From Lingula anatina (taxonomy: Eukaryota; Animalia; Brachiopoda): a stretch of 64,000 nucleotides of DNA. Positions 16,601 through 52,676 of this stretch are shown here, piece by piece. The stretch spans positions 21,908,534 to 21,972,533 of the forward strand of contig CM120644.1 in NCBI GenBank assembly GCA_051362555.1, read 5' to 3'. The position numbers and the translations under genes were made by a program. How positions within the stretch are numbered: the first letter of the stretch is position 1; each line of letters starts with the position of its first letter. The notes under the pieces were generated by a model. It worked only from the letters and a program-made list of their open reading frames with translations. It was not told the DNA's origin and made no database searches.

Positions 16601-16806
16601 TAGTCCAGAAGGTTTCCCAGCAAAGGCAGGCCCTTTGGTCCTGGCATTTCTTCCAGCGGCCGTGCCTGAGGTACGTGTGTAGCCGCCCCGTGGGGTGTGG
16701 GCGGGTCTTTGATTTTGGTGGTAGCGGAGGTCGTGCAGGACCGGCCGGTGATATAGTACAGGACACATTTAGTCCATCTCCCATGCTGGTGTAAATGTAC
16801 AGGCAT
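4692..16806 (-). CDS. Cytochrome P450, mitochondrial clan-like, paralog A (9 coding exons, ~522 aa)
   Basis: Exons 16806-16590, 16387-16156, 13523-13336, 12608-12407, 11680-11518, 6319-6153, 5881-5800, 5483-5283, 4808-4692. All junctions are GT-AG with consistent phases (1569 nt). Motifs: MPGPKGLPLLG, WHDRR (WxxxR), AGVEST (I helix), ESMR (ExxR), PERW, FGHGPRMCIG (heme Cys). The N-terminus is basic and S/T-rich with no TM anchor. Confidence 0.93.
6384..8960 (-). mobile_element. Degenerate non-LTR retrotransposon (CR1/L2-like ORF2: APE endonuclease + RT) in intron 5 of P450 A
   Basis: Frameshifted fragments GNTLDLV..SDHYPV (APE), NYRPVSLLCTISKVMER, GVPQGSILGPLMFLLYISD, FADD and LERVQRSATR. 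Absent from the equivalent ~620-650 bp intron of paralogs B and C. Confidence 0.88.
7939..8383. mobile_element. Non-autonomous TIR element nested inside the LINE relic
   Basis: Imperfect inverted ends gttggcctgattgggtc / gaccaaatcaggcccac flanked by TA; it interrupts the LINE reading frame. Confidence 0.5.
10198..10425. mobile_element. MITE with subterminal tagatcgatcta inverted repeats
   Basis: Interrupts gattctgaacatagtgaatga (intact at ~10600) with a CATA/TA duplication; ends tttcca..tagatcgatcta / tagatcgatcta..tggaaa. Confidence 0.55.
10736..10873. mobile_element. Internally deleted TTAA-site (Kolobok-like) MITE
   Basis: Same AGGGATAA termini as the copies at 20936 and 43261. Confidence 0.6.
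12777..12954. mobile_element. Harbinger/PIF-like MITE
   Basis: gcattcagagcagcggact...agtctgctgttctgaatgc with TAA duplication. Family members at ~25731-25890, ~25894-25948, ~44250-44432 and 48821-48995. Confidence 0.65.
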
Positions 16807-21272: not shown

Positions 21273-21822
21273 TTAAATAATCGAAGTGTACAACACAAGA
21301 ATAAAACAATTAAAATTAATTTTATGCATTCAGAGATATAAACACGACTGAAGATACACGTGTCTAATATATATCAATGAAAGTGACAGAAACGATTTTT
21401 ACAAAGATTTCTTTAAAAAACTCCACAGGCTTGAATACGAGTTTTATATTACATTTGTGCTCAGACCTCTAAGATAATAGACTAAGACATTCATGTATTT
21501 TAATAATAATAATCTTTAAAACACCTTATTACACATTGCTAATTTATTTTACAAAATAGAAATAAGAAAGAATAAACTATGTACATATTTGAGTTATAAG
21601 GGATAATTATACAATGTTTGGAACACAATTAATATTAAAATAAAGGAAAAAGAATGAGACGAGAAAAACAAACCAATTTTACAACCCTGTACCCTGCATA
21701 TTATGGTTAAAACGTCTAATTTCGCTTCGCTCTGTGATTTTTCTTTTACATTGCCCCTCTCCCCTTAGCGATAGCCTGGGTAAGTCAGGGCCTTTAAATA
21801 CCAAAGTGAAACGTACAGTTCG

Positions 21823-24512
21823 TCAGTGCTTTTCCTGCAGAACATTGTTGCTTCTTGGTGTGACTGTTAGACCAAGAGGTTCGTCTGGTTTCCCAAATGA
21901 AGTATACGTGATTCCGATGTCCTCCGAGCCCGTGTGTTGTATCGTGAAATTCTGGACAAGCTGAAGAGAGAAAGATAATGGAATGGTGGAATAAAAAGGT
22001 AAACAATCCGCGTTTGAAAGTGTCCCCAAAACACGAATTCTATCTCTACATTTCCTGCATGAATCGTAGCAATAACGTAGCAATAAGGAATGGTATAAAA
22101 CACGGATTCATGTACAGAGGCTGGACGGTGATTCGTGAGTAGAAGAAATTTCAATTTTTCCGGGAAAATCTGGGAAGGATTCCTTTATAAAGTTAAGATG
22201 ATTGCCCATGCGCAAACAAGGGCTTGTTGAAGAATAAGATCATATCAAATAAATACCTAATGAATTATATCCACATATCTAAGTAAGATCAAGTGAATTA
22301 CGTTGTTTTCTTGTTTAAATCTGAAGGAGACTCCGAGAATGTTGCAGAAAAAAAAGTGTTTGTATGTATAGCAAAGAGGGAGAGAGTGAGAAGAGAGGGA
22401 GAGGGGGAGGAAAGAAAAAGAGAGAGAGAGAGCGAGAGAGGGGGAAAGAGGGGGGAGAGAGAGGGAAGAGAGAAAAAGAGAGCAGAAAGACAGAGACAGA
22501 GAGATTGGGGTTAATACCTTGCTGACAGCAATGTACATCTGCTGTTCCGCGAACCGTTTCCCTAAACACATTCTGGGGCCGTGGCCGAAGGGCAGCATGA
22601 GGAAAGGGTGTGGCTGCACGTTGTCCTCCTTCATCCAGCGTTCAGGAGAGTAGGTGTGAGGGTTAGGAAAGTACTCGGACTGTAAGCACGATATGTTGTT
22701 ACAGTTTATCACACAGGTCTGAAAGAAAAAATAAAGTAATGATCAGTCACGTGACTGAGCATGACATATCACCCAAACTTTAGATTAACCACCGCTACCT
22801 CCTTAAAACAGACAGGCAAATTGTTAAAATTAGAAATTTACGTTAAAACTGAACTTTGTAAAGTTGAGAATGTCATACTCCAATAGGAGCACTTAAGTTG
22901 TGGCGGTTTAAGTAAGTATTAAAACTTTTTTCTTAAGAAAATGGTTAATTTGGCTTCTAGTCTAATTTGAGATCAGACCACGCTTGCAACAATATTATGT
23001 GACAATAGATATCCACAAACCCCTTTTGGTACTAGGTAACCTCCCAGAACAGCGTCTTCGGCCAGGATTCTCGAAGCTGCTATCACTACAGGGAAGTATA
23101 ACCTGAAAAAACAAACTTACATATTCTGCAACAAAATTTTAAAGAAGATATGAACTGATCGTTACAACTATATTCAAACACTAGACGGAGATTAGAAAAC
23201 TCTTTAACGTACACACAATAAAAGTAGTTTCTAAGTCCTTTTAAAATATTATAATTGTCACTATGGACTGGGCTTAATGGGCTCGGCTGGGCTATATCTA
23301 TATAATATGTCCCTTCAAATTATCTTCTACCACCAAACAATATCAAAAATAACTTATGAACCCGTAAAATACATGTAGTAAGAGAATTATTGCACGTATA
23401 TGTAGGTCAAACGCTAAAAAAAAATAAAATAAAAATAAAAATAAAATAAATAATAATAAAATAATAATAATAATAATAAAAATGGCAAAATTATGTCCAC
23501 TTTCAAAATGGCGGATGGCGTCCATCTTGAATTTGAGACACCAAATGTCAGGCAATTGTTTCCATAAATGGGTTCCTGGTAATTAAGTCAGGTTTGATAA
23601 TATACGTTTTTAGTCATAAAAGTGAAGCTAATATGATATATCATATTTTTGTATCTAATTATGCTAATTATGTAAATTATGCAAATTTATGCATCAATAG
23701 AAGTATCTCTATGGATAAAAAAATGTCATTTGGCCAAGGAACATTAATGCCAAGTTACTCATTTGTACTACAAATGCAGCGTTTGGCTTACTACCCAGAA
23801 AAATGTAGATAAAGGTATATCATTTTTACGATTTCATTGCATACCTCATAGACTCTTTCACACACGCTTTCATATAGGGCAGACGATTGAGGTGTTCGGT
23901 GGTCATGTGACCATCTCTCGGCAACACTCGGGTCACTTCGGCCCTTAATTTGTCTTGTTTGTCTGGGCTGCGGGCCAAATTGTACAGTAAAAAGGCCAGG
24001 CTGTTCGAGGTCTGAAAAAGAGAGCAACAAAAAATACAAGTAGACACAAAGCCTAACTTACAAGTAAGTAAGGCCAAAGCTACGCAGGAAAACAGGACAT
24101 ATTCCGTCATGACATGTTGATAGTAAAGAGGGTATAGAGAAATTCAAAATGAATATACAGTAATATCTTTCTCGTCTCTACTACCTATGTTGGGGTGTGT
24201 CTGTTTTTCCGGGGGGGGGGGGGGGGGAGGGGGTGTAGGGAAGAGGGACTTACCACCAATATGTTAAGTGAAGAAAGGTAACATGGGAAGAAGCCTTGGG
24301 GATGCATCTAGCATACGTTTATCCTGACGCTCTCTTTCCGTATTATTTCGGCTCCTTTTAAACATTTTTGTGTATTACACGTAAAATAGTCGGTTTCAAT
24401 GTCAGCTTTCGACTCCATATCAAACATTTAATTTCTCACAGCTGAATGGTCGTGTTAATGATAAACGCCCCATTCAAAGACAATATGATATCGTAAAGGG
24501 AAACTGTCGAAT

Positions 24513-24549
<37 letters not shown>

Positions 24550-27500
24550 GTTATACGATTTGCTGTCATAAGTATTTCCTTAAGTATCCTCAGAAATATA
24601 ACTTAAAGCACTTCAAACAAACTGACAAAATAAAAAAATATTTGGAAATGGTTTACAAGTCACCGATTCTACTCCTGCTACAAAGAGTGCTGCGGCGGAA
24701 TTCGAGGCGTTTTCAATGGATTCGCCGTCCTTGACAAGGTCGGTAATGAAATGATGCGGACTGTCTTCCGTTGTCCTCAACTCGGCATTTTTCGCAAGAC
24801 TCTTTTCGACAAGATCCGCTGAAAATCTGAAACAAATAAAACAAAGATTAAATGAACTGCATGTAGGATAACTGAAGTCATGTTATAAAATCAACAAATA
24901 GCCAAAGGGATTCGTATTTTGATTGTGATATATTTTTACCTTAATTACTTAATTTCGTATTATTTTTCAACGATAACCCTTGGTAGGCCTTAGGGTGTTT
25001 TTTTTAATAAATTTCTTCCTTAAATGTAATATGTTATGTTTATATCAGAGTATAAAGAAATTCCTCTCCTATCTCGTTCACATAACAAAGATTAAAATTT
25101 TATTTTCTTTGTAGTGTTGGAGTATCTCCCTTGTTCTTTTGCTAATTTGTTAGATGAAAGTCTTAATTCTGCAGGGAATCCCCCATAACTGAGGCATGGG
25201 CTTGGGTAGATCATATTGTATTGTAAAATCACCTGTCAATTTTGGTCTGAATTTCAATTTTAATCTTTCCTCAATCACGGCGGTCACCAAATATTCTAAA
25301 TTGAAAATATTTGCTCCCACAACTGATCCCATTGAGTGCGTGTAAAAGGTTCTGTCATACCCCTGTACTTACTGTAAGATAAAGGAGTACACTTTCACAA
25401 ACCGAGCATAGAGAGGCGTTGGAAACCACTTAAAGAGCGGAAAAGAGAAGATGGTATCGGCCAGCAGGGCAAACAACTCTTCGTTCTTCTGAATAAACAT
25501 TCGCTCCTTGGCATCGTGTTGCAATTTAGCTCCGAGCACGTTGAGTCGCATATTAAAACATACATTTCCAATCGCTAAAAGGTAGGCAAATAAAAATGAG
25601 GTGATTAAAAAAGGAAAAAAAAAGTGAAATAAAATAATTTGACTCCAACCTGAACAAGAAACATTTTCTGAAATGGAAATAGCTACCAATAAGCAATACT
25701 AAAAGTGACTACATCCTCAAATGTTGACTAAGGCTCCATTCAAAATAAGGGACTAATTAGTATGAAGGTAAAATATGTCTGACCACTTCATTACTTCCCC
25801 AGTGTCCATTAGCAGATTAGACGGCAAGCTTTGTGGTGGGTCGCCATATTTGATCCACGGGCTAGTTAGTCCCCTTTTCTGAATGGGGCCAAAGAGCGCA
25901 TTCAGAACAGCAAACTAACAGATCCGCGATCAAATATGGCGACCCACAGGCTGTGCAAAAACATATTAACATTAAAGTGTTATATCATAAAACTGGCGGA
26001 AGAAACGTTCCTTTATATATTCACTTTTCAATTCAGTCACGGTTCATTCTTTATTTCAAAACATGTAGGTACGCATTTGCTTTTGCAACATTAAAACGTG
26101 TGTGAAGAGAAGCTTACATTCCATGACGTACTGCACCAGTTCCTCCTGAATATCGAGCTCTGTCTTTTCCTCGGCCATCTTCCGCAGGTAAGCCACAAAG
26201 TCATCTGTGACTTGGGACTGCATACTTAGGTAGAGCTGCACGGCTTGGGGGCGGAGCATTTTCTTCTGGGTCGTCGTACGTCGGTCATGCCACTGTTTGC
26301 CATCTCTTGAAAGAGAAACTAAAATGTTTTCACTGACTAAAATCTAGAAAGACACGCAGGGAGTGCATGCCTACCACTACGTCAAGACAAATAAGCTAAA
26401 ATATGTGATTGTTTACTTTTCTGATTTTCAAAGGAGAACAGAAAACTTGATTCTAAAAGTAAAACTGTTGTTTCATGCACTAAAGATAACAATACTTCTG
26501 CATATTAGGTTGATGTTCCATTCAATTTTTTGGTATACAAAAAATGAAAAAATATTACACTGTTTAACTTTAAACAGATATAAAAACTCCTTTCTATCCC
26601 TAAGGAAAAAATACTTCTACAGATTACATTGGTGTTTCATTTTCAATGGGAAGTTTCTCTGATATTCAAAGACGAACAGGAAAAAACTGCACTGTTAAAC
26701 TTAAAACTGTCGTTTCTTGCACCAAGGAGAAAAAAAATTTTACATTTTACATTACAACTTAGACAATGCTAATCATAAATCACCGTATAGATCTTGTATA
26801 TGAGAATCAAGCGTTAAATTTGTGTCCATGAAGAAGGCTGACTAGCCGAAAGCATAGATATTATACTTTTAAAACAGAATATTTTTAAAGATGTATTTTA
26901 ATTTTAAATCTAAACAAGGAAAACACCGATTTTCAAAGATAGACAGAAAAAAAAAATACAGCTATGTGTAGCGTTGAATCAGAGAAAACTCTTACTTTTT
27001 TTTTACTTTGAAGTGAAGAATACTTTTCCATTTTACATTGAAAAAAAAAAGACGTTTCATATGAACGAGAAAAAATAATTAGTTTTAAAAATAAACAGAA
27101 AAATACTGCAATATTAAGCTTTTAAATAGAAATATTCTGAGAAATTTTGTCTTGAAAGAAAAAATACTCATATTTTTTAAAAACGAAGAGAAGAGTACCA
27201 ATGTTTAGCTCTGAATCTGGAAAATGTTATATGCCTCTACTTACCCCATTCCTAAAGTTAAAGGTTTTCCTGTGCGCTTGTAATAAACATCCAGCAAGGG
27301 TATCGAAGCCCCGCGGCTTGGGTAACGGCCCTCCTTTCTAAACACAGTGGCAATATCTTCAGGGTCGGACACATAAATCATGTATGTGCTGGGTCCGAGT
27401 CTTTCCTTGAAAATCTTTCCATATTTCTCAAAGTCCTTAGCGAGCTGCAGGTGTAATTTAGATATTTTTTTGTTCCCTGGAAGATGATTTGATAAATTTT

Positions 27501-27895
27501 CATGTTATACTTAAAATATCATACGATGGTTTTAACATTAAAAATATACCGATATTTGTCTCATAAACAAGGGTCGTAAAACTACTACACCTAAAGGAAT
27601 ATTATATAAACTATACCGGTATAATAATGGTTTATCTGACCGGCTAACACACTAGACGACAGTACAAAATGAGCGTACCAAACATGGTATAGTCCAGAAG
27701 GTTTCCCAGCAAAGGTAAGCCTTTTGGTCCTGGCATTTCTTCCAGCGGCCGTGCCTGAGGTACGTGTGTAGCCGCCCCGTGGGGTGTGGTCGGGTCTTTG
27801 ATTTTGGTGGTAGTGGAGGTCGTGTAGGACCGGCTGGTGATATAGTACAGGGCACATTTAGTCCATCTCCCAGGCTGGTGTAAATGTACAGGCAT
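21823..27895 (-). CDS. Cytochrome P450, mitochondrial clan-like, paralog B (9 coding exons, ~529 aa)
   Basis: Exons 27895-27679, 27476-27245, 26305-26118, 25574-25373, 24826-24664, 24011-23845, 23102-23021, 22718-22518, 21960-21823. Same exon sizes and phases as A except a longer last exon; no internal stops found. FGHGPRMCLG heme motif; C-terminus extended (…TPRSNNVLQEKH*). Confidence 0.92.
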
Positions 27896-28309
27896 CTTGG
27901 ATGAGGAGATGACTTGAAGTAAGAAGGGAAAAGCTGGAAATCATTAAACAAGGCAGCAAAGCTGTCAAATGCACAGACAAAGAGCACAAAATAAGGATGT
28001 AGAAAGTTTGTCATTTTGTCAATTTTGATGTAAAAATAAATAATGCTTATAACAACACAGTCAACCAAAATTAAACTTAAATCATGCACAACAGGTAACA
28101 TGGTCAATAAGATTACAGTTTCAAAACCATGACAGTTTAAATTCACATAATAAAAATCCCAATATGTGGAAAATGTTGACAGTGCATAAAATGATATAAC
28201 AATGTTTAATTACATAAACCCCAGTACTACCGCTTATGTGGAAATACAGAAAATGTTTATAGCTTTAGGTGGATGGGAGTTAAAATTCACATTTTGAAAA
28301 TACCAGTGT

Positions 28310-28844: not shown

Positions 28845-29525
28845 CTCGTCATCTGGCTCATGCCAATCTTATCTGCTTGTGTCTGTTGGTCGACGGTGGC
28901 TTTTGACGAGGTCTTTTAGATGAAAGTTCGGCTTGTAAAAGATGCCCGTTGACTGTTTGCCTACTGATTCGAGCTCTTCCTAATCCAGGCTAGATGTTCC
29001 TCAGTTGTTTGGCCAACATGAACTGGTTCTGATGGCATAATCAAACCAGACATTTTCATCTCTTGCGTCGGTTAATATTGGTCTACCAGAAAAAGGCTTG
29101 TCCAATACATGATGAGTTTGGTGCCATTTTGCTACCAGCTTGGACACTTGACTTGCGCTATTTTTGTTGCCTTGCAATCTGTCTCTTTGGCACCCCAGCT
29201 CGATAAGTTCCTATTATTTGCCACCTGATGGCCTCGTTAAGTACTCTACTAACCATTAGTTGGTGCAATATAACAATTTGTGCCCATGAAACTAGCCAAA
29301 CTGGAAGCTGCACATGGCATGGCCAAACTGTGTTTTTCGCAAGTGTCACCCCCATTGCATATTCTACTGTGTCCAGCAGTAAAAAGTACTCAAATATAAG
29401 GGTACAGTTAGTCAAAGTAAAAACAAGAGATATATCTAGCTACTGTACCAATTTTGTCTCAATAAAAAGCTTGGTTGCTGAGAAATTTGAGAAATTAGAA
29501 AGTGTTGCTTAACTTATGAGCATCA

Positions 29526-29527
<2 letters not shown>
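28845..29527 (-). mobile_element. Truncated Tc1/mariner transposon (5' half), same family as 52677-53992
   Basis: TIR gtgttgcttaacttatgagcatcagt at ~29502-29527; LNEAIRWQIIGTYRAGVPKRQIARQ and ISRQTVNGHLLQAELSSKRPRQKP HTH fragments. Confidence 0.8.
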
Positions 29528-29588
<61 letters not shown>

Positions 29589-30444
29589 ACTTAATTAGTC
29601 AAGTGACTTACTGGCTCTAAACTTAGCTAGTGACTACCCAAGGGACAATTACAGACTGACCACCTGTTGTATCTATATGGCACCAAAGAGTATGTGAAAA
29701 TGAGAATTTCATAAGGAACTGCATTGCTACCAAAACAGAAAGCATTCTCACTGATTTTCCAACACTTCAGTCCTATGAGTATTTGCAGTAAATTTCAGAA
29801 TCATGAGTAACATGGTCATCATGGCAGCAAAGTCCAAAATAGGAATTTCATACAATATACAATATTAGATAATGCTTAACAGCAAATGACTGTCAATGAA
29901 TCTATGTTTTAAAGCTAAAACTGCATTTAGGTCCTATGTTTTTTTCTGTAAGTTTGAGAAGAGTTAAAGATATGGGTTTCCTTTAATGGTCACTATGGTG
30001 ACAGTGCTCAAAATAGGTTTCCTTCACTTTTGATATGATATTACATAATGCTTAACCGCATAATCACAATCGATCTTTAATCATGCACTGCAGGTAACAT
30101 GATATTAAGAAAATATGACTTGCAAAGGTCTTAAGGTCGATGAAAATAAGTCACACCTTGAAAATGCAAATATATGCACAAGAGATATCTATTCTAAAAT
30201 GAGTATCTTTTCTTTTTCAACACTCTTTTTACATAAAACAAAATGCAAAACACATGCATGGAGTTTGAGCCGCAGGGGGGGGGGGGGGCAGGGAAAGTTG
30301 ACATACCATCCCAACGATCTCCCCTAGAAATTCTTGAAAAGTATATTTTGAAGTTTTATACAGGGTGCGCATTTTCTTTTAGCATAGTAAATCAGGAGTC
30401 TCTTAATCCATTTTCCCTCAGTCAGCGTCTCTGACGTCAACACA

Positions 30445-30672
30445 CACTGGACAATAGAAGTGTCACCTCCTGCATCAGAGTAATCAAAATTATTAACCTG
30501 AAGAGGCCGAATATAAGCAATGTCAGAATATCGATACAGTTGAATTGTTCAGTCAGAACCGTTTCTCTTGTGAAATTTGATGTTAATAAAATGATACCAG
30601 GAGTATATCATTCCACAGTTATTTATCTTCCCCAAAGTATTGGTTCAGTAGGGGTGTCACTTCTATTGTCCA
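30445..30672. mobile_element. Tc1/mariner-type MITE (CACTGGACAATAGAAGTGTCACC TIR)
   Basis: Inverted ends; a second, inverted copy is at 51724-51953. Confidence 0.65.
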
Positions 30673-32315
30673 TGTAGATGCGTACCCAGCAATATAAATC
30701 AGGAGTTTCTTAATCAATTCATTTTCCTTCAGTCAGCGTCTCGGACGTCTTGATGCGTAGGCCTACCCAGCAACATACCACCTGGCTGTTTACACGTACA
30801 AGTACACTGTAGACAGTCAGCAGCTGCCCCATTCTCCACTCCCCCATTCAACCATCACGACATTTAATACAGAATTTTTTCTCACGTCCCAAAGCATCTT
30901 TTCAGTCTACGGAAATGTGGTCTCAGTCTTTCACATCTATACGGTATCTGTACACTGTCTGCTGTGATGGTTAGGATTACTCGGGTGTTTGCTTGTGCTA
31001 AGCACTCTTGTAGAACACACCTACCTAGAGGACTCCTGTATCTTTAAGGCATATACCGCTACTGCCTTGCTTGTTCTGGGGACGGCTGTACCCGAGCAAC
31101 AATAATAACACGGGAGCTGACCCAGTTACAATAATAGTTTTTTTTTTGTGTCACGGCCTACGCGGTTTTATAAGAGTAGGCGACACTGTATGAAGAGCCA
31201 GTTTTATAAGCACCAGACTAGTGCATCAAGGTGAAGGTTCACAGAATTTGACCTTATCGGGAATTAAACTTGATGAAAAACCACTTAAAAAAAGGCATAA
31301 CTTCATCAAAACTGCACCGATCAAGCTGATTTTTAAACCCAACCCGTATTTTAGTAAGATTGATCTCTCCTGTGAGTTTCATGACAATAAGCCAATCAGT
31401 TTTCCTTGAAATGTGTTATCAATGTTGCATACATACTGAAAAAAGTGAAAAACAGAAGAACTTTTGAAAAAAATGACCCGATCATGCTAATTTTCGAACT
31501 CGACTTGCCTTTAATGAATAAACATTAGTTCTGAAGGATTAAAGCCAAAATGTTTAAGTGCATGGCGACGACGGTGACGACTGCAAAGGCGACGATAGAC
31601 GCAGGTGACGGCTATATGTGCAAGAGATCATTTTCGTTCTTTGTTGTCTTCACTAGCACATTATGGAGCAAATCGTGGTGAGCACAACAATCAGATTTAG
31701 ACAGAATGTGAGGGTAAAAAATGCTTTCCTGGTCAGAGATTACTAAGTGCTCACTGTAAACTTGATAACTTGGCTCTTTTTACCGGAGTGCATTGTTTAA
31801 TTTTATTTAACCCATTGATTAACAAGTTGTAAACATTTAACTAATGGAAGTGTACAACACAAGAACAAAGCAGTTAAAAGTAATTTTATTTATTTAGAGA
31901 TACAGAACACGACTGAAGATACCTGTGTCTAATATATTTCAATTAAAGTGACTGAAACGATTTTTACAGAGATTTCTTCAAAAAACTCCACATGCTTGAA
32001 AATAACGAGTTTTATATTATATTTCAAAATGTACACAGACCTCTAAGATAATAGACTAAGATATCCGTGTATTATAATAATAATAATATTTCAAACACCT
32101 TATTACACATAGTAAAATTATTTTACAAACGAGATTCAAGAAATTAAACTATATACATATTTGAGTCATAAGGCACTATAGGATTATTATTAATGTAGAC
32201 TTATGTAATTCATCTTCTGTTTCAGATAGCGATCAGTGTCAAGTTGGACCAATAAACGCTTAACGAGAAATAGTACAGTGTACTTATATATGATCGCTAT
32301 CCCATACCTGACATC

Positions 32316-35300
32316 ATGCCGGCGGTCCAATGCCCAATAGAAGGCTGTGACTACACCACAGATGACCTTGACGCCACTATCGTAGCAGCCCTACTCACCA
32401 CACACAGCTCTGTTCATACCAATGCCCCCGTTACTGCAGCCAAAGTGGAGAAAGTCAAGCGGCCCACAATATCAGCCTGTGGTACCAGCGAAGAGTGGTC
32501 ATACTTTCAGTCCAGATGGACAGAATATGCCTATGCAACAAAGATAGCTGGCAAAGACAGGGTTATCCAATTGCTGGAATGTTGTGATGACCCCTTGCGA
32601 TAAGACCTAAGTAGGACAGCATGTGGGAGCCTTGCAAACTAATCCGTTGATGAGGTGATGGCTGCAATCAAAGCATTAGCAGTACGCACAGAGAACACAA
32701 TGGTGGCAAGAGTGACACTACAGAACATGCGCCAAGACAGAGATGAACCTGCTCGCAACTATGGAGCCCGTCTAAAAGGCCAGGCAGGAGTATGCAAATT
32801 TTCTGTCTCATGCCCCAGTTGCAACACTGCTGTAAGCTACATGGAGGAGATGACCCGTGATGTTCTAACCCATGGACTAGCAGACTCTGAGATCCAAATA
32901 GACCTTTTAGGGGATAAGAACCAGGACATGACATTGGAGGAAGTCCTCCAATTTGTGGAAGCAAAAGAAGCAGAAAAGTGCTCCGCATCACGCTTACAAG
33001 AATCCCAAGCAGCTGAGGCCATCGGTAGCACTTACCGACGCAAGAAAAAAGAGACCCCCGCCCCTGCCTAAAAACCACCCCAGGACCCCTGTGGCTACTG
33101 CGGAAAAACTGGCCATGGCAAGGCTGCTCCTCTACGCATTCGTAGGAAAGATTGCCCCACCTTTGGGCACAAATGCCAGACCTGCACGTGATACCACCAC
33201 CTTGAAATAGTGTGCCGTAGCAAAGATAAACCCAAGCCGAGCCAGAAGACTACTTCCTGTCATGAGGCAGATGACTGTGAAGGCGCAGTCTATGAATCGC
33301 TCTGCTCTGTCACCATCACAACACAACATAGGAAAGGCAGGGCCATTGCTTTAGATCATCATATCTATGATCAATTGAATGACACGTGGGTGCGAAGAGC
33401 TTCCAAACCACAACCGTTCGTCAATCTCAGAATCACTGTCTGTGCAGATGATTACAGAGAGCTAGGCTTCAGCCTTCTATCCTCAGCCACACCAATAGAA
33501 CATCCTTCAATGGCTGACACTGGTTGTCAGAGCTGCCTTGTGGCATTAAGGTAATCCAACGTCTAGGCCTGAAGCAACAGGACCTGATCCCAGTCACTAT
33601 GAAGATGCACACTGCTGTCAACAATGGCATCAACATTCTTAGAGCAACTATACTTTCCTATGCTGGGAGGGGCCCATCTGGCAAACTGGTGGAAACAAGA
33701 CAGATGACTTATGTCACCAACAACTCTGACAAGCTCTTAATCAGCTGGGAGGCATGTTTTGCACTTGGCATCATACCAAAGACCTTCCCGACTGTGGGTG
33801 CAGATCACATGTCGCAGTGTGCATCCGTGTTCCCTGACATTACCCTTACAGCATGTGGCACTGATGCCCAACACACATGCACTTGCCCCAAACGTCAACC
33901 ACCTCACCAGCCTCCAACCAAGCTGCCCTTCCCTGCAGAGGAACAGAATCGTGGGCGACTGAAGGAATACCTTCTGGACTATTACAGGTCCAGTACGTTT
34001 AATACATGTGATCATCAGCCCTTGCCCCTTATGGACAGCCCGCCAATGAAATTGATGGTAGACCCTTGAGCTGCACCAGTAGCCTATCACACTCCAATAC
34101 CATTCCCACTTCACTGGCAGGAAGAAGTGAAAGCAGGTCTCGACCAAGATGTCAGACTGGGGGTCATCGAACCAGTCCCAATTGGTAAGCCAGTCACCTG
34201 GTGCCACTGCATGGTTGTATGGGCGAAGAACAATGGCAGGCTACGCCGCACAGTTGATCACCATGACGTCAGACTGGGGGTCATCGAACCAATCCCAATT
34301 GGTAAGCCAGTCACCTGGTGCCACTGCATGGGTGTATGTGTGAAGAACAATGGCAGGCTACGCCGCACAGTTGATCTACAGGCCCTAAATGCACATGCTA
34401 CACGAGAGACCCACCACACCCCTTCTCCTTTTCACCAAGATAGGGCAAGAAAAAGACAGTTCTGGATGCGTGGAATGGATACCACAGTGTACCCATTCGT
34501 GAGGAGGATCGCCATTTAACAACGTTTATCACACCCTGGGGCAGATACCGATATTAGGTTGCCCCCCCCAAGAATACATTGCTTCAGGTGATGGGTACAC
34601 CAGGAGATACGACGAAATTGTCTCGCACATCACTAACAAAACCAAATGTGTCGATGATGTCCTACTTTTGTCCAGCTCAATAGAGGGGAGTTTCTTCAAA
34701 GCCGTGAAGTGGTTAGACATCTGTGGTAGACATGGCATCACCCTGAACCCAGAGAGGTTTGTCTTTGCACAAGATGAGGTGGAATTTGCAGGATTTGACA
34801 TTACCCTGGACAGTGTCAAGCCCAGTTCCAAGTACCTTCAGGCCATCTTGGACTTTCCCACCCCTCGAAACATGACTGATGTGCGATCATGGTTTGGTTT
34901 GGTCAACCAGGTATCATATGCCTTCAGCATGGCAGACAAAATGCTTCCCTTTAGATGTTTTCTTCAACCTGGAACCCCCTTCAGATGGGACGAGGATCTC
35001 AACAGTCTCTTCGAAGAATCCAAGGCTGTCATCTCCAAGGAAATTGAAGAGGGGGTCCGAATATTTGACAAGTCCAGGCCCACATGCCTTGCAACTGACT
35101 GGTCCAAAAATGGAATTGGGTTCTGGCTCCTACAGAAGAATTGCTCTTGCCAGCCTATCCGACCATTCTGCTGCCCATCTGGATGGAAGATTACTCTTGT
35201 AGGCAGCCGTTTTACCCACTCTGCTGAATCGCGATATGCCCCCATCGAGGGTGAAACCCTAGCTGTTGCTGATGCTCTGAACAAGACAAGGTACTTTGTC

Positions 35301-36714
35301 CTTGGATGTCATGACCTCATCATTGCAGTTGACCACAAGCCATTACTGAAGGTCTTTAGCGGCAGGTCCCTTGATGATATCAACAATCCCTGCCTAAGAA
35401 ACTTGAAGGAGAAGACCCTCAGATACCGCTTCCAGATGGTACATATACGTGGGGTCAAACACCTTGCTGCAGATTGCGTATCTCGTCATCCCACAGGAGA
35501 TCCAGATAAGCTCCCCCTCCCTGACGACGTTGCTTCTGTCAGCCAACATCACCCTCTGTCTCAAATCCGATCCCCTGCCCCCAATCACATCCTCATGGAG
35601 GAAGACATGATCTCTGCACTTACATCTTCTCTGGCATCCATCACCTTGAAATCAGTGACCTGGGACAGAGTACGCTCAGCAACCACAAGTGATGCAGATA
35701 TGGCTATGCTAGTAGACTTAATAACCTCAGGTCTGCCAGAGAGCCACCAAGAGTTCCCCATGAAGCTTCACGAGTATTATCAGTTCAAGGAGGACCTCAG
35801 CACAATCGACGGAGTTGTGTTGTATAGAGACCGTGTAGTCATCCCATCTGCATTAAGGCAAGACGTCCTCTCTACATTGCACAGTGCCCATCAGGGGATC
35901 TCCTCTATGATAACCAGAGCCGAGTCCTCAATCTTCTGGCCTGGCATTACACCCGAAATAATATCCACCAGAACAGGTTGCAACCACTGCAACCGCATGA
36001 CCCCCTCCCAACCGAGTGCCCCTCCGACACCATTGATGTATCCTGACTACCCATTCCAGTGCATCTGTGCTGACTACTTCCACTACATGGGTAATTACTA
36101 CCTTTTCATCGTTGATCGGTATTCCACCTGGCCGATTTCGGAGAGAGCATCCCAAGGAGCGGCTGGCCTGTTAGCTTCTCTTCGAGGGACCTTTGTCACC
36201 TTTGGCATAGCCGATGAGCTATCCTCAGATGGGGGACGGGAGTTCACATCAACTGCCACCAAGACGTTTCTTTCTGATTGGGGTGTACATCATCGTATGT
36301 CATCAGTAGCCTTTCCCCATAGTAAATGCCGTGCTGAAGTTGGAATTAAACGTAAAACGCCTCATCACAGACAATACCAGCCCTAATGGTGACCTGGACA
36401 TGGACAGCTTTCAGCGTGCTATGCTTCAGTACAGGAACACCACAGACAGAGACACCAAACTCTCACCGGCAATGTGCGTCTTTGGGCACCCCATCCGTAA
36501 TTTCATCCCCATTCCACCAGGAAGATATAAACCACACACCACTTGGCAAGTGACCCTTAAGGCTAGGGAGGAAGCGCTCAGAAATCGCCATATGCACACC
36601 AAGAGACTTGTAACCCTTGCAATAGGGGACCGTGTCCGAATCCAGAACCAGACAAGCCCTCACCCCCTGAAATGGGACAAGACTGGGACTGTAGTTTACT
36701 TGTTTACACACTAG
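32316..36714 (+). pseudogene. Disrupted gag-pol of the Gypsy element
   Basis: ORF pieces 32316-32603, 32655-33071, 33210-33554, 33524-34069, 34127-34519, 34668-36386 and 36331-36714, joined by stops and frameshifts. Confidence 0.88.
34143..34376 (+). repeat. 117-bp in-frame tandem duplication in the RT N-terminus
   Basis: DVRLGVIEPxPIGKPVTWCHCMxVxxKNNGRLRRTVD occurs twice (34143-34259 and 34260-34376). Confidence 0.9.
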
Positions 36715-37158
36715 TGACCTCTCATGGATCACTGAAACATTTCAGTATTTCTGCTGACTTTGGTTATCAGTGAACCTAAAGACTTGGGGGGAGATATAGG
36801 ATTATTATTTATGTAGACTGTTTCAGATAGCGATCATTGTCAAGTTGGACCAATAAACGCTTAACGACAAATAGTACAGTGTACTTATTTAGGCACAATT
36901 ATATAATTCAAATGGCATGAACACAATTAATATTAAAACAAAGGAAAAAGAATGAGACGAGGAAAACTAGCCATTGCTACAACCCTGTACCCTACATATT
37001 ATGGAAAAAGCGTCCACTTTTTTGTATTTCTCTCGCTTCCTTGTGTGATTTTTTAAAACTTTCCCCTTCTCCCATTTGCCACAGCCTGGTTAAGCCCGTA
37101 CCTTTGAATACCAAAGTGAAACGTACAGTTCGTCAGCGCTTTTCCTGCAGAACGCTGT

Positions 37159-40100
37159 CTAGTCACCTCTTGGTGTGACTGTTAGACCAAGAGGTTCGTC
37201 TGGTTTCCCGAATATAGTATACGTGATCCCAATGTCCTCCGAGCCCGTGTGTTGTATCGTGAAATTTTGGACAAGCTGAAGAGAGAAAGAGAATGAAATG
37301 GTGAAATAAAAGGTAAACTATACGTGATGGAAAATGTCCTCAAATACATGAATTTTATCTCTACATTTCCTGCATGAAACGTAGCAATAACATAGCACTT
37401 AGAAATGGTATAAAGCACGTAGGTAGGTGATTCGTGAGAAGGAGAAAATTTAATTTGGCGGGGAAATCTGGAAAGGCCTCCTTTAAGGTAAACACGATTG
37501 CCCATGCGCAAACTAGGGCTTGTCGAAGGAAAATATAATATCAAATAAATACCTAATGAATTGTATCCACATATCTAAATAAGATGAAGTGAATTACGTT
37601 GTTTTCTTGTCCAAATATGAAGGAGAGTGTGTAGCAGAAAATGTGCTTGTATGTATAGCAGAAAAAGTGTGTGAGAGAGAGAGAGATAGAGGGAGGAGGG
37701 GAAAAGAGAGACGAGAGGCAGGGGGGGGGGGGGGGTCGATACCTTGCTGATAGCAATGTACATCTGCTGTTCTGCGAACCGTTTTCCTATACACATTCTG
37801 GGGCCGTGGCCGAAGGGCAGCAGGAGGTAAGGGTGTGGCTGCACGTTGTCCTCCTTCATCCAGCGTTCAGGAGAGTAGGCGTGAGGGTTAGGAAAGTACT
37901 CGGACTGCAAGCACGAGGTGTTGTTACAGTTTATCACACAGGTCTGAAAGAAAGAAGGAATGATCAGCCGCGTGACTGAGCATAACATTACACCCAATCA
38001 GCGCCAACTCACCGCCTTACAATAAACAGGTATACTGAAAGTTAAAATTACGAATTTACTTTCATGTTAAAACTTATTAAAGATGAGAATGTGGTTACCC
38101 AATGGGAGCATTTCAAAAAAGTTGTGGCGGTTTAGGTAAGTGTTAAGACTTCTTCTGTCTTAAAGGTACATACGAACCGAGCATCGGTGGAGCGTGGATT
38201 CCCAGTAACACATGTAAACCACTTCTACTAGTTTCTTATACAACCCTAATAAATTCGACATGCCAAGGGATAAACTGAATAAATCACCCGATCAGCCATT
38301 AAAGAGCTTTAGAGTGCTCCTTTCTTTAAATTTTTGGTTGTCAATTTAACCTACTTTCATGACCTACTTTTCTGCCCCACTGACATACAGCATAGAATGC
38401 TAGCAGAAAAATCTGTTCAAACATCACTTTCGGGTAAAATTAAACAAAGCCTTTTGGTAATTCTCTTAGTTATACTACTTGAAACTAAATGCTGGCATTT
38501 GGTTGGTTTTTATGAGAAGAAATTGACTTTGTATGTATCTTTAAGAGAACGTGCACGGTTAATTTGGCTTGAAGTCTAGTTCGAGACCACGCTTGCATCA
38601 TTATGATGTGAGAATAAATATCCACAAACCCCTTTTGGTACTAAAAAACCTCCAAGAACGGCGTCTTCGGCCAGGATTCTCGTCGCCCCAAGCACTACAG
38701 GGAAGGATAGCCTGAAAACACGATAACAAATGAAAATAGAGCGTAATAGAGATTTCCTCTACGCAGGACTATATTGCACACTGCAGAAAAAACAATTTAC
38801 TTCATATACAACAATGGTCAAAAAGGTTGTCCCACTTCCAATACCATGCGTGTTAGAGGGTTAGTTCTCATCTGCATTGCACACTCCAATTCATGCCACA
38901 GGTGCTCAGTATGGTTAATATCAGGGCTCAATGTTGTGGTTCTTCCCTCCGAACATTGTGTTTTTGCATCAAATCACTGGGCAAACGAAAACTGTGAGGA
39001 AGTGTGTTGTCATGATAAAGCCTGGAGTTAACCCTGAAGTCAGCTCTGCAGATGGAGTGAGATATGAGCTGAGAATGTTACGCTCAGTGATCCCAGAGGC
39101 ACCGGAACCTGGTCAACCATAACTGGAATGAAGCTGGTTTTGCTGAAGAACCAATGTATTTCTTATATCTCATTGATGGTCAAATGAGGGTCCATATACA
39201 TGGTGCAGAATGCTCCTTGGAAGGGTGTGTGGAGAATAATATCGCCTGAGGTGTCAGATCTGTCCGCGTTTGGAGCATCCCAAGTCCATGATATTCGTAC
39301 GTTGTTCCATCTGGAACAGAACGTTACAGGGACATTTTACTGTAGCATTCTCAACAGATATCTAGCTCCATATGCAAGGGGTGACTTCATTGTGACAACA
39401 GTCATTTGTTGCAGAAACTCGGTGTTCTGAAGATGGAGCAACCATATTTAAGCCCTGATACTAACCTTACTGAGCACCCGTGATATGAATAAGAGTGTGC
39501 TATGTAGAGGAGAACCAATCTCCTAATAATCTGAAACAACTCCACCAAGCTCCTTAGGAAGACTGGGTCAAAATTCCTTAAAACAGAATTGTTACATTTG
39601 TCATAGCAAGCTGCGCCACCTTCAGGAGATAATTGCAGTACCCGGTATACACGCACGCTTTTAGATTCGTGATCTTAAACGAGCACACCCTAATGCTAAT
39701 TGTATGTAAATTTGATGCCATTCAGTAGTAAGTTTTCAATTTACTGAACATTTCTTTACCTTTGTGGAAACCACAGTGAAATATCGGTCTTAACGGGAAC
39801 ATATCAAAAATTTAAATAAATGGTATGACTTTTGGATATTTTCACTGCTATTTTGTATTTTCCGAACCATTTATTAGGTTATATATGATATCTGGAACAA
39901 AAGGCACTGTTTATAATAATTAACACTAGTGAGGTGATCATTTGTAAATAAAAGCAAATGGAATTGAGTGGGACAACCTTTTTGACTAATGTTGTAAATT
40001 AAACTAGTTCTGGTTTTACCACTTGTATACCCCAAAAATGTTGATAAATGTAGTTCTCTTAAGGATTTACTTTGCATACCTCATAGACTCTTTCACACAC

Positions 40101-40700
40101 GCTTTCATATAGGGCAGACGATTGAGGTGTTCGGGGGTCATGTGACAATCTCTCGGCAACACTCGGGTCACTTCGGCCCTTAATTTGTCTTGTTTGTCTG
40201 GATTGCGAGCCAAATTGTACATTAAAAAGGCGAGGCTATTTGAGGTCTGAAACAGAAAGCAACAGAAAATATAAATAGACACAAAGCCTAACTTAAAGAT
40301 AAAAAAGGCCAAAAGTACGCAGGAAATCAGGACATATTCCGTCATCACATGTTGATAGTAAAAAGGGTATGAATAAGTTCAAAATGAATGTGATATCTTT
40401 CCCGACTCCACGACCTACACTGGGGTGTGTCTGTTTCTTGGGGGGGGGGGGGGGGGGGGGGGGGGAGGAAGCCTTTAGGGAGGAAGCCTTTAGGCTTTAG
40501 TGCTGTCGGAGATTCATCTATCATGCTTTTGTTCTGACGCACTTTTTCCGAATTCTTTCGGCTTCTTTAAACGTGTTAGTGTATTACTTGTGCAATCGTC
40601 GTATTCAATGTTGGCTTTGGACTCCATATCAAACGTTTAATTTCTCATAGCAGAGCTCCCCATTGAAAGATGATATGAAATCGTAAAGGGAAACTGCTGA

Positions 40701-40747
<47 letters not shown>

Positions 40748-43700
40748 AGTTATACGATTTGCTATTTTAAAGTTTTTCCGCGAGTGTTTCTCCAGAAATA
40801 TAACTTAAAGCACTTCAAACAAAATGACGAAATAAAAATGTATTTTGGAAATGTTTAACAAGTCACCGATTCAACTCCTGCAATAAAGAGTGCCGCGGCT
40901 GAATCCGAGGCGGTTTCAATGGATTCGCCGTCCTTGACAAGGTCGGTAATGAAATGCTGTGGACTATCTTCCGTAGCCCTCAACTCGGCATCTTTCGCAA
41001 GACTCTTTTCGACAAGATCCGCTGAAAATCTGAAAGAAATAAAACAAAAATCAAACAAACTGCATGTAGGATAACTGAAGTCATGTCGGTGGATACAACT
41101 TTCTGGATGCACGATGCTTATATTTCACGTTCACTGGTAAACATGCTCAAACATTGTAACTTCTATTCATTTCATTCTATAAAACATTTTTAGGCGCACG
41201 GCGTATCAGAGTAATATACCATATAAGAAAATAGAATAATTTATAAAAAATATATATAAATTAATAAAACTTGTTAATATTGTTCAACAATAATATTTGA
41301 TAGTTTTTAGGGTGTTAGGCCTTATATAGCAGAAATACAACATTGGTCAAAAAGGTTGTTCCACGTCCAGTATCATGTGCTTTTATTTATTCATGATCAT
41401 ATCACAGGTGAAAGTTGTTATAAATAGTGATTTTCATTGAGCCAATTCACTGAAATATTCTCAACAAATATCTCACTCCATTTGCAAGAGGTGACTTCAG
41501 GGATATTCGTACATCGTGGGAGTGCACTTGCACACAATTCTCGCCTGCTGAGTGATGTGTTGCAGAAACCCAATGCTCAGAGGATGGAGCAACCATCTTT
41601 GAGCCCTGATATTAACCGTACTAAGCATGAATTGAAGTGTGCAAAGGAGAACCAAACTCCTAATAATGTGGACCAACTCTCCCAAGCTCTTCAGGAGTAT
41701 GGGACAATATTCCACAAAACAGCTTTGTTATCATTGTTAAAGGCAGGCCGCGCCGTCTACAGGAGATAATTACAGTACGCGGTAGACACACACGCTATTA
41801 GACATGTGACCTTTAATGAGCACATCTTAATGCTAAATGTGTGTAAATTTCGTGACATTTGGCGGTTTCTTTTCAATATTATGGAAATTTCTTTAACTCT
41901 GTGAAAGTCACAGTGAAACGTCGGATTTGAGGGGGTACATGTAATAAATGTAAATAAATGGTATTAAATATGGATATCTTAACCGCTAGTTTGAATTTTC
42001 CGTACCATTTATCATGTTAGTTAGGGTAAAACCACCATTCATAGCAATTAGCTCTTGTGATGTAATCATTTATGAATAAAAGCACATGAAACTTGGGGTG
42101 GGACAACCTTTTAGACCAATGTTGATTTGATAAATTTCTGCCTAAATGGGCATATGAGAATATAAAAAATTCGTCTCCTCGTTCACATTACATTTTTTAT
42201 AGATTTTATGTTGTTTAATACTGTGGCTAATTTGTGAGATAAGACTAAATTCTGCAGTGAATCCCCATGGGCTTGGGTAGATTGTATTGTTAAATACCCA
42301 GTCAAATTTTGTATGAAGTTATCTTTTAATCTTTCCCCAATCACGGAAAGCACCAAATAATCTAAAATAAAAGAGATCTCCTCTCACAACTTATCCCACT
42401 GAGTGCGTGTAAAAGGTTTTGTCATACCCTTGTACTTACTGTAAGACAAAGGAGTACAGTTCCTCAAACCGGGCGTAGAGAGGCGTTGGAAACCATTTAA
42501 AGAATGGCAAAGAGAACAGGTTATCACCGAGGAGGGCAAACAATTCTTCGTTTTTCTGAATAAACATCCGCTCCTTGGCATCGTGTTGCAACTGAGCTCC
42601 GAGCACGTTGAGTCGCATATTAAAACATACAGTTCCAATGGCTAAAAAAGTAGGAAAAATAAAATTTATGCTATTAAAAAAGGGAAAAAGTGAAATAAAA
42701 TCATTGTACTCTAACCTAAGTTATAACCATTTTTCTGAAGCTTCCCAGCACAAAAGTATATAAATATATTTAAACTGGATGAGAGAAATCACTACCAATA
42801 AACAATACTATTAGTAAGTGTATTCCTCATTGTGGACTTTGATCCGTTTTGTTTTGTTTTTTTTTTCGCCTTTTGCTATTAACTTAGTAAATAACCCCAA
42901 CGGATCCTCGACGCTCGACAAGGCTGATTAATTAGTAAAAATAAAACGTAGGAAGTCAGTAAAGGGACAACTTATGACTGGTATAAAATTCCAGTAGTGT
43001 AATTGCATGTAAAAACCCGCACAAATGGACTGGTTCAGGTTAATATAAGTATTATTACTGATGCATCTCTTCTTTACAGATGTCATATATATCATCCGAG
43101 CTTTCGGCCCCTAGGCCTTCTTCGGGTATTATCAATCCCTAGGAGTCGAAAGTACGGATTATATATGACATCTGTTCAGTAGATCTTCATAGATGCATCA
43201 GTAATAATACTTATTTTTTTCCTTAAGATCTATACGGTGAATCGACAGGCTTCAGGTTAAAGGGATAACAACTCTTTGTGTGAGATCTATATTTCACAAT
43301 AAAAACATCGTGAACAACTCATAGAAATATAATTAATTCTATTTTACCACAAAAACGGCAGTTATAACTAATATTCTGATATCTTAGCTGGTCTTTAGAC
43401 CATGTGACCTCCATTGATGGCTTTTTTTTAGAAAAAAAACAGGGACTAACTTTGAATGTAAAAATATATTCATAAACCATTGGTAAGTATGGAAAAATTG
43501 TTGTTTACCCCAGGAAAATTCATTTTTGGCCAAAACGAAGAGTTATTATCCCTTTAATGAAACGGCCGATGTGAAAAAACTCCGCAAAAATAATAACACT
43601 GTAGTGGTTATATATTAAAAGTGGGGGAACAAACGTTCCTTTATATATTCACTTTTCAATGCAGTCACGGTTCATTCCTCATTTCAAAACATGTAGGTAC

Positions 43701-45427
43701 ACATTTGCTTGTGCTTATGCAACATGAAAACATGTGTGAAGAGAAACTTACATTCCATGACGTACTGTACCAGTTCCGCCTGAATATCGAGCTCTGTCTT
43801 TTCCTCGGCCATCTTCTGCAGGTAAGCCATAAAGTCATCTGTGACTTGGGACTGCATACTTAGGTAGAGCTGCACGGCTTGGGGCCGGAGCATTTTCTTC
43901 TGGGTCGTCGTACGTCGGTCATGCCACTGTTTGCCATCTCTTGAAAGAGAAACTAAAATGTTTTCACTGAGTAAAACTAGAGGTAACAACAATATCTTAG
44001 CGCATTACAAGTGTCTGAATAGGCAGACTGACACGATAGTCAAAAATTTTTATATTAATTTAACTTTAAAATTGACACAAATGTATAATAAGTAACAAGA
44101 AAGGCAATTTTCATGAGCAATCAAAAATACAATTGTGAAAGAGCACTGAAAAATCGTTTCTATAAAACTCGGATGTTTCTAGAATGGAATGACACGGGAA
44201 AGCAGTAACATTGGAAAGACCACCATGGCAATGTCAGAAGTTGATCTATGGGCGCACTCAGAACTGTGGACTCACAGATTCGCGGATGAAATATGGCGAC
44301 CTCCTAAAAAGCTTGCCGCTCAATTCTCGATTGGACACTGAATAGATTCCCCGCGGGGATTGCCCAACAAGCATTCAGTGGGTTGGCCATTTTTGATCCG
44401 AGAATATGTAAGTCCACTGTTCTGAATACGATCTTTTCCTTCCCTTACCCCATCCCTAAACTTAAAGGTTTTCCTGTGCGCTTGTAATAAACATCCAGCA
44501 AAGGTAACGAAGCCCCGCGGACTGGGTAACGCCCCTCCTTTCTAAACACAGTGGCAATATCTTCAGGGTCGGACACGTAAACCATGTATGTACTAGGCCC
44601 GAGTCTTTCCTTGAAAATCTTTCCATATTTTTCAAAGTCCTTAGCGAGCTGCAGGTGTAATTTAGATATTATTTTGTTCCCTGAAACATTGGATTAATTC
44701 TCATGTTACACGTTAAATATAAAACTATAGTTTAGACATTAAAAATATACCGGTATTTATCTCATAAAGAAGGGTCGCAACTCTACTACACCTAAAGGAA
44801 TATTTGTAAATTATACCGGTATAATTACGGTTGACCTGACCATTAACACACTAGACGACAGCACAAGATGAACGTACCAAACTTGGTATAATTATGGTTC
44901 TTCTGACCATTAACACACTAGACGACAGCACAAGATGAACGTACCAAACTTGGTATAATTATGGTCTATCTGACTGGCTAACACACTAGACGACAGTACA
45001 AGATGAACGTACCAAACTTGGTATAATAATGGTTAATCTGACTGGCTAACACACTAGAAGACAGTACAAAATGAGCGTACCAAACTTGGTATAATTATGG
45101 TTTATCTGACTGGTTAACACACTAGACGACAGCACAAGGTGAGCGTACCAAACTTGTTATAATTATAGTTGACCTGACCGGCTAACGCACTAGACGACAG
45201 AACAAGATGAGCGTACCAAACTTGGTATAGTCCAGAAGGTTTCCCAGCAAAGGTAAGCCCTTTGGTCCGGGCATTTCTTCCAGCGGCCGTGCCGGAGGTA
45301 CGTGTGTAGCCGCCCCGTGGGGTGTGGGCGGGTCTTTGATTTTGTTGGTAGCGGAGGTCGTGTAGGACCGGCTGGTGATATAGTACAGGCCACATTTAGT
45401 CCATCTCCCAGGCTGGTATACAGGCAT
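37159..45427 (-). CDS. Cytochrome P450, mitochondrial clan-like, paralog C (9 coding exons, ~520 aa)
   Basis: Exons 45427-45217, 44680-44449, 43939-43752, 42641-42440, 41029-40867, 40246-40080, 38711-38630, 37943-37743, 37275-37159. GT-AG junctions with consistent phases; AGVEST, ESMR, PERW and FGHGPRMCIG present. Confidence 0.92.
38809..39994 (+). mobile_element. Degenerate Tc1-like DNA transposon in intron 6 of P450 C
   Basis: ta|caacaatggtcaaaaaggttgtccca...tgggacaacctttttgactaatgttg|ta, with decayed transposase remnants inside. Confidence 0.78.
41338..42124 (+). mobile_element. Internally deleted Tc1-like copy in intron 4 of P450 C
   Basis: Same TIR (caacattggtcaaaaaggttg); RMEQPSLSPDINRTKH resembles the WPxxSPDLNPIE motif. 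Confidence 0.75.
43046..43213. repeat. Long palindrome containing a hammerhead-like motif (probable Penelope-like remnant)
   Basis: Arms taagtattattactgatgcatct / agatgcatcagtaataatactta plus inner arms. The minus strand at 43093-43129 reads ATACCCGAAGAAGGCCTAGGGGCCGAAAGCTCGGATG. Confidence 0.7.
43261..43553. mobile_element. Kolobok-like MITE (TTAA TSD), inverted relative to the 20936 copy
   Basis: ttaa|agggataacaact...agttattatccct|ttaa. Confidence 0.75.
44818..45229. repeat. Six-unit 67-68 bp tandem array spanning the exon1/intron1 junction of P450 C
   Basis: Units start at 44818, 44885, 44952, 45020, 45088 and 45156; there is a single unit in paralogs A and B. Confidence 0.93.
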
Positions 45428-51723: not shown

Positions 51724-51953
51724 CACTGGACAATAGAAGTGTCACCCCTACTGAACCAATACTTTGGGGGAAATAAATGACTGTGGAATGATATGCTCCT
51801 GGTATCATTTTATTAACATCATATTTTACAAAAAGACCAACAATACAATTCCATGGTACAGCGGTTTTATACTCATTAGTCACATTATAAGTAGACCAGG
51901 CATTATAACTTTGATTACTCTGATTCAGGGGGTGACACTTCTTTTGTCCAGTG
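51724..51953. mobile_element. Tc1/mariner-type MITE
   Basis: cactggacaatagaagtgtcacccc...ggggtgacacttcttttgtccagtg. Confidence 0.72.
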
Positions 51954-52435: not shown

Positions 52436-52437
52436 AA

Positions 52438-52483
<46 letters not shown>
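52436..52483. repeat. (TAAA)n microsatellite
   Basis: Direct read; similar tracts at ~55421-55457 and ~62881-62923. Confidence 0.9.
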
Positions 52484-52484
<1 letters not shown>

Positions 52485-52676
52485 GATTTCAAGTAAAAAA
52501 ATTGGCAATTATGTGTTTCCAAAATGCAGTATTATCATAACTATTCATGATCATAATGAATTTATAATGGTTAGGAAAATTTTAGCACCTATTTTGTGTA
52601 AGATGTTTTGAAATTCGATAGGAAGTCATACGACTACACGGAAAGGTTGTTATGAACCGCAAGTCATTTCAAATTA

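Follow-up and report, generated by a model that had tools for sequence, protein, structure and literature searches.

In Schizosaccharomyces pombe, the retrotransposon Tf1 primes its own reverse transcription: the 5' end of its RNA is brought onto the primer-binding site, RNase H cuts, and the resulting piece primes the minus strand, as set out in the text of PMC7175516. Three duplexes are required for this according to PMC10085805. PMC6317226 treats self-priming as demonstrated in Tf1 and as inferred in the Tf1/sushi group, Tcn1, and the TAR lineage of Copia. Here, we describe a Ty3/Gypsy element in a 64,000-nucleotide (nt) stretch of Lingula anatina DNA (GCA_051362555.1, contig CM120644.1, positions 21,908,534 to 21,972,533 of the forward strand; this whole stretch is called the window below). 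The primer-binding site (primer site) of this element is complementary to a motif of its own long terminal repeat (LTR), and a preliminary description had proposed that it primes itself independently of tRNA. The pairing sits at the LTR end, and its two arms covary across about 46 families of related elements.

The element and its relatives resemble Tf1 and Tf2 of S. pombe and the Tf1/sushi chromoviruses in that the primer site adjoins the 5' LTR and is complementary to about 11 nt of the LTR (PMC7175516, PMC10085805). The lack of a TGG start, the Ty3/Gypsy domain order, and a hairpin at the end of the unique 5' region (U5) are further likenesses. For TAR (Ty1/copia) and Tcn1, self-priming has been predicted from the same kind of complementarity between primer site and LTR; both are plant elements and not animal ones, TAR belonging to another superfamily and Tcn1 lying inside the Tf1/sushi branch (PMC6317226). 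Because of TAR, self-priming had already been proposed outside Tf1/sushi.

Pairing of the primer site with the LTR in the window copy and its relatives

The window copy is a dead Ty3/Gypsy retrotransposon in which the primer site and an LTR motif are complementary (Table 1). The 11 nt that follow the 5' LTR with a spacer of 0 nt, TGATCGCTATC, are the exact reverse complement of GATAGCGATCA within that LTR, and a second copy of GATAGCGATCA lies in the 3' LTR. When the LTR was shuffled with its dinucleotides preserved, the full 11-nt complement arose in none of 20,000 shuffles and a 10-nt one in 8. The two LTRs agree at 93 of 97 aligned bases, apart from a single 17-nt gap in the unique 3' region (U3); both begin with TATAGG and terminate in TA, and their outer flanks carry the same 5-bp target duplication. 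Stops and frameshifts are spread across gag-pol, the 3' part of the integrase is missing, and the reverse transcriptase (RT) region contains a 117-nt tandem duplication (34148-34381, units starting at 34148 and 34265). In the long frame 34503-36386, Pfam recognised an RNase H and an integrase domain, in the Gypsy order. No tRNA genes were found in the window, and Rfam gave 0 matches over positions 31500-37500. The preliminary description had located the primer site, the LTR motif and its 3' LTR copy, the TCAG, the AATAAA, the hairpin, and the leader stem correctly in every case.

Residues 20-420 of the long frame were used as the query of a search among long proteins, and at least 1011 long relatives were found (1011 matches among 4541 candidates). 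The best 120 of these 1011 matches were 51-85% identical to the query, and the few named hosts among them were sea urchin, oyster, sea anemone, and shrimp. In the same 120, the RT active site read CVDD in 60 and CIDD in 54 (together 114), and a cysteine cluster (C-x-C...C-C) was present in the RNase H of 116, at about 35130-35185 in the window; this cluster is a possible metal site. Intact relatives have a single Gag-Pol frame of about 1,600 residues, with the domain order protease-RT-RNase H-integrase (Pfam), two LTRs, a target duplication, and a polypurine tract. The best relative of solved structure was Ty3 Gag-Pol (E 6e-42). An AlphaFold model of the RT-RNase H of one relative, L003 (predicted local distance difference test 71, predicted template modelling score 0.56), confirmed the RT fold and was uninformative on the cysteine cluster. 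For Gag, the top cluster in the ESM Atlas was unnamed, and the remaining Gag/zf-CCHC leads were under 0.9; looking up clusters yielded no names either. By these sequence features, the window element is a member of a large Gypsy clade of marine invertebrates.

Of two protein-alignment scans, the first confirmed 365 stretches, the best 80 of which yielded 71 loci, and the second yielded 21 loci from 29 stretches. With the window this makes 93 loci; 73 include the start of Gag, and many are close kin. The bacterial labels on some of these loci are best read as host DNA inside symbiont assemblies. Among viral contigs, 9 pattern matches were obtained, none of which was a relative of the element. 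The target duplication was inspected by eye at the 15 loci with both outer flanks, and 5 bp were repeated exactly in 11 and with one mismatch in 3, while the duplication was absent in 1. The LTRs start with TA, and their last two bases among 64 loci were TA in 57, GA in 5, and CA in 2.

The longest inverted repeat upstream of gag was then determined by a blind scan of the 69 loci with enough sequence. A repeat of at least 10 nt was present in 55 of the 69; coding controls had one in 4 of 67 cases and shuffled sequences in 1 of 69. The 3' arm of the repeat started at the LTR end, which is set independently by the second LTR and was not imposed by the scan. After adding loci with the partner arm in the 3' LTR or with a mismatch, 64 loci were tabulated, in which the duplex of 10-18 nt was perfect in 58 and had at most one mismatch in 61. 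Together with L043 (12 nt) and L069 (13 nt), which were read by eye outside the table, 63 of the 73 loci with the Gag start carry a duplex of 10-18 nt at the LTR end. The primer site of L021 is partly deleted, and one arm is missing from the contig in L009, L012, L018, L020, and L092.

The letters of the duplex differ widely while its pairing is kept. The first ten bases of the primer site took 45 different forms among the 64 loci, none of which starts with TGG, and each of positions 4-10 was occupied by three or four different pair types. Over ten positions in 42 representatives, the pairing score was 9.8 within families and 4.3 across families, the former being high partly by construction because the duplex anchors had been chosen as the best inverted repeat, which takes some weight from the comparison; 1 of 1,722 cross-family pairs scored 10. 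When the 64 loci were arranged on an RT-RNase H tree, the most parsimonious history of positions 1-10 took 144 changes for the LTR arm, 148 for the primer site, and 149 for the pair, whereas independent change of the arms would need about 292. In one young family, a single-base variant was matched on both arms in 9 of 10 copies, which are not independent of each other. Covariation in relatives, which the preliminary description had named as the check on its proposal, was thus decisive in its favour.

The decayed state of the window copy would suit an origin of the complementarity by chance or by a local inverted duplication in one dead copy. This explanation is refuted by the shuffles, by the recurrence of the same arrangement in different letters throughout the clade, and by the covariation, and its probability is practically negligible. 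The duplex might instead be a structural stem for packaging, dimerisation, or translation control, with a tRNA half, a tRNA fragment, or another host RNA as the primer, and half-tRNA priming is known in Copia lineages according to PMC6317226. However, no single tRNA or other host RNA can match 45 primer-site 10-mers that track the LTR base for base, and a structural stem would allow G-U pairs and positional drift, whereas the observed duplex is almost wholly Watson-Crick, with near-zero G-U, and fixed at the LTR end. We therefore regard the structural explanation as very unlikely. The primer sites are not complements of tRNA 3' ends, as had been noted for the window copy, and their diversity and covariation support tRNA-independent self-priming; some form of it very probably operates in the clade.

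Relation to Tf1/sushi and to other Gypsy lineages

The preliminary description had also doubted a likeness of the proteins to Tf1/sushi, and the features compared bear this out. Five long relatives had no chromodomain at a threshold of E 0.1, and none was among the precomputed domains of the best 120 of the 1011 matches. In contrast to Tf1/sushi, the LTRs of the clade have TA...TA and not TG...CA ends, the RT has CVDD/CIDD and not YMDD/YLDD, and the RNase H has a cysteine cluster, while the leader duplex of the Tf1 pretzel is not conserved and the primer measures 10-18 nt. In chromodomain, LTR ends, and pretzel, the clade is thus unlike Tf1/sushi, and self-priming here probably arose apart from the yeast Tf1 family.

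A good match among described elements is offered by Lamellibrachia luymesi, a tubeworm, with its 13 TATA-motif LLGY elements (PMC8220671), which share with the clade the TA...TA ends, the PQGYIASGDG and C[IV]DD motifs, and a 5-bp duplication. Their LTRs are 117-191 bp and their length 5.1-5.6 kb. ASGDG occurs in 13 RT rows of supplement 4, and these are the same 13 elements that supplement 1 names as having the TATA motif. On this motif comparison, the window clade is very likely the tubeworm TATA-motif clade. In the text of that paper, the tubeworm families are placed in CsRN1, Gmr1, or Mag or regarded as new, and none is counted among the chromoviruses; the TATA-motif elements fit LGF2 or LGF4 by size and may be LGF7-9, which lie inside Mag. 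The Mag lineage (A, B, and C clades) is likewise non-chromoviral and abundant in marine invertebrates (PMC6238403, PMC3601003), and the RT start of the clade (P-x-x-W-C-H, TPWG) is by eye nearer to a Mag-like row than to Tf1 or Sushi-ichi in the alignment of PMC8220671. Unlike those of the clade, however, the LTRs of Mag A and C end in TG...CA, and none of the reference rows of that alignment, among them TF1, Sushi-ichi, Maggy, Tor2, Cigr1, and SURL, contains ASGDG.

The main text of PMC8220671 is silent on priming ('self' occurs 0 times and 'PBS' in general passages alone), and the available parts of mollusc and polychaete surveys do not discuss the primer sites of their clades; the motif of the window clade was not found in the searched part of their supplements. 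No report of self-priming in this clade was found in the literature searched, which did not extend to subscription journals and Repbase Reports.

Origin of the primer in derived and basal families

If priming follows the Tf1 model, the initial 10-14 nt of the transcript would fold onto the primer site, the RNase H of the element would cleave after the paired stretch, and the new 3'-OH would prime minus-strand DNA. We consider it likely that the clade primes in this way, with the freed RNA 5' end. Plus-strand synthesis would then copy the primer back into the primer site; because this standard step would renew the primer site from the LTR motif in each cycle, it would account for the complete matching of the arms and the scarcity of G-U pairs. 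In the window copy, the RNA start is predicted at 32224-32225, at the first base of the predicted primer or the base before it.

The RT-RNase H tree splits off a derived subclade with 64-72 nt between the duplex arms, in which the LTR arm begins at A in 17 of 21 families, with an initiator context in 16. The base after the primer-site duplex is C in 20 of the 21 (about 7 expected); this C moves with primers of 13 or 14 nt, and the bases further on vary. The loci with C after the duplex are L002, L015, L022, L025, L035, L038, L042, L044-L046, L049, L050, L054, L061, L068, L074, L076, L084, and L090. An extra G in full-length L1 insertions has been read as coming from the cap (PMC11702581); the available text of PMC4668388, PMC7353768, and PMC7472051 contained nothing useful on cap copying. 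By analogy, the C of the derived subclade is a candidate trace of RT copying the cap G, with the capped 5' end as the primer, so that the cap G would appear as an extra C in this subclade.

The 25 basal families, which include the window copy, behave differently. In 17 of 21 basal representatives, the primer 3' end is preceded, at a distance of 10-22 nt, by a T-rich tract with YAG; mean T is 0.52 as against 0.36 in derived families. In 15 of 24, the duplex leaves a gap of 0-3 nt to the AG, and in 1 it extends precisely to the A. An exact AATAAA follows the primer within the LTR in 9 of 20 basal but in 0 of 18 derived families. The T-rich motif could represent a variant initiator or else a splice acceptor. 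On the latter view, the primer of the basal families, including the window copy, would be an inner piece of RNA, bounded by a splice acceptor (in cis or in trans) or taken from the 3' LTR motif. The T-rich tract, the duplex that stops short of the AG, the absence of the C pattern from these families, the presence of the primer motif in both LTRs, and a U3 that is frequently as short as 30-60 nt agree with it. Splicing in silico also lengthened a 10-nt duplex to 15 nt in L003, where the donor precedes the LTR acceptor by 194 nt, and to 14 nt in L030, L031, and L033, where the donor is inside U3 (147-152 nt). Against this, no extension was obtained in other families or the window copy, and at a chance rate of about 3.6% per family (28 cross pairs) a yield of two families is near chance. 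Furthermore, the reading frame holds no conserved splice donor, no splice joints occurred among the RNA reads, whose depth was low, and TCAG after a T-rich stretch also suits the initiator TCAKTY as given in PMC3601003. We judge an inner-piece primer in the basal families unlikely. A splice-junction primer was rejected as a rule of the clade, being seen in two families only; a 9-nt splice match at L086 lies in flanking DNA outside the element; and Copia-like spliced Gag RNA joined to the LTR acceptor was rejected, no conserved donor being found in the reading frame.

Several observations weigh against priming by the RNA 5' end as in Tf1. An initiator start occurred in 1 of the 25 basal families and a following C in 9 (7.4 expected), so that beyond analogy nothing supports a capped 5'-end primer there, although the window copy itself has C at 32302. 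Even in the derived subclade, the C may descend from one ancestor; the families are related. The duplex measured merely 7-8 nt in the divergent loci L039, L071, and L080, and neither an LTR nor a duplex was found in L052. Public RNA reads were few (6, 19, and 32 plus one contig in one examination, and 2, 0, and 8 plus the same contig in another) and showed no pile-up at a start site, and some of them span 32225 from upstream and may stem from the 3' LTR or from read-through transcripts. In the contig, which belongs to a close relative (X1), a change at 32226 with none listed at 32300 leaves one uncompensated mismatch. The leader-R duplex, finally, fell below the 5th percentile of cross-family pairs in 0 of 38 families (median 0.55). 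One X2 read has an aligned part starting at 32225 (depth 0.32 in a 34-nt bin; n = 1) and was given no weight.

The preliminary description had likened two stems of the window copy to the flanking stems of Tf1. Both are present there, the leader stem with -10.3 kcal/mol at the 7th percentile of cross-family pairs; as a conserved feature of the clade, however, the leader stem was ruled out by the percentiles given above. Many families show a short hairpin, with differing letters, at the end of U5, and its support in the clade is weak: halves taken from the same family gave -2.7 kcal/mol as compared to -1.5 for halves from different families, with 10 of 42 at or below the 10th percentile, and the z-score against shuffles was below -1 in 3 of 38, which is not significant. 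Because the leader stem is not conserved and the hairpin statistics are weak, the stems are no evidence for a Tf1-type pretzel.

A more elaborate scheme would combine two primer routes in a clade that came to self-priming independently of Tf1/sushi: the capped 5' end with its copied-cap C in derived families, and splicing at the LTR acceptor in basal families, which would have almost no promoter and whose replication would be licensed by host splicing or host transcripts. We put it forward as speculation and think it rather improbable.

Locus map and implications

Table 1 Features of the window copy (positions in the window)
Feature	Position	Strand	Basis or remark
Left target-site duplication GGCAC	32172..32176	+	Repeat at 36892-36896
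5' LTR, 114 nt, TA...TA; 48 nt only 5' of primer motif	32177..32290	+	Termini agree with relatives
T-rich tract with TCAG (TCAG 32222-32225), initiator-like and equally 3' splice acceptor-like	32209..32225	+	Sequence; motif in most basal families; putative function
Predicted self-primer GATAGCGATCA	32225..32235	+	Complementarity, covariation
AATAAA, poly(A) signal candidate	32251..32256	+	Sequence
U5 hairpin AGTAC-AGT-GTACT	32272..32284	+	Short hairpin at same place in many relatives; weak statistics
Predicted primer-binding site TGATCGCTATC, adjoining LTR end, then C at 32302	32291..32301	+	Complement of own LTR
Leader segment, imperfect pairing with 32237-32247	32302..32313	+	Not conserved in clade
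Broken gag-pol (Gag, protease, RT, RNase H, integrase); CVDD at 34647-34658	32316..36714	+	
Polypurine tract TTGGGGGGAGA	36784..36794	+	Same in relatives
3' LTR, 97 nt, primer motif copy 36826-36836	36795..36891	+	
Right target-site duplication GGCAC	36892..36896	+	

The window also contains a long segment in three dispersed copies that are 61-96% alike (about 4600-16800, 21700-27900, and 37000-45400; D3-D11), and the retroelement sits between the second and the third. A 68-nt unit forms a tandem array at 44818-45250 and occurs as single copies at 16530 and 27619. Long inverted copies at 29005-30672 and 51727-53203 are 88-93% complementary and about 21-24 kb apart, and the minus strand has open frames at 2-1111 (370 codons) and 49314-50471 (386 codons). 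In the flanks of the related loci, unrelated decayed Gypsy RT fragments (YIDD-like) were seen at L034:2791-3844, L061:15020-16223, L066:3496-4357, and L068:10943-11804.

If self-priming in this clade is true, tRNA-free priming in animals extends beyond the Tf1/sushi chromoviruses and through a large clade of marine invertebrates that is still active; supplement 1 of PMC8220671 contains young copies with identical LTRs. Self-priming would then have arisen independently once more, in elements built differently (TA...TA ends, no spacer, no full pretzel, CVDD/CIDD, and a cysteine-rich RNase H), which would provide a natural case to compare when asking how an RNase H gains the ability to cleave an RNA-RNA duplex. 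The C after the duplex would allow cap copying and transcription starts to be read from genomic sequence alone. The clade is likely under-annotated by tools that require TG...CA ends or a tRNA match, and self-primed elements would lack the tRNA site that tRNA fragments use to silence LTR elements.
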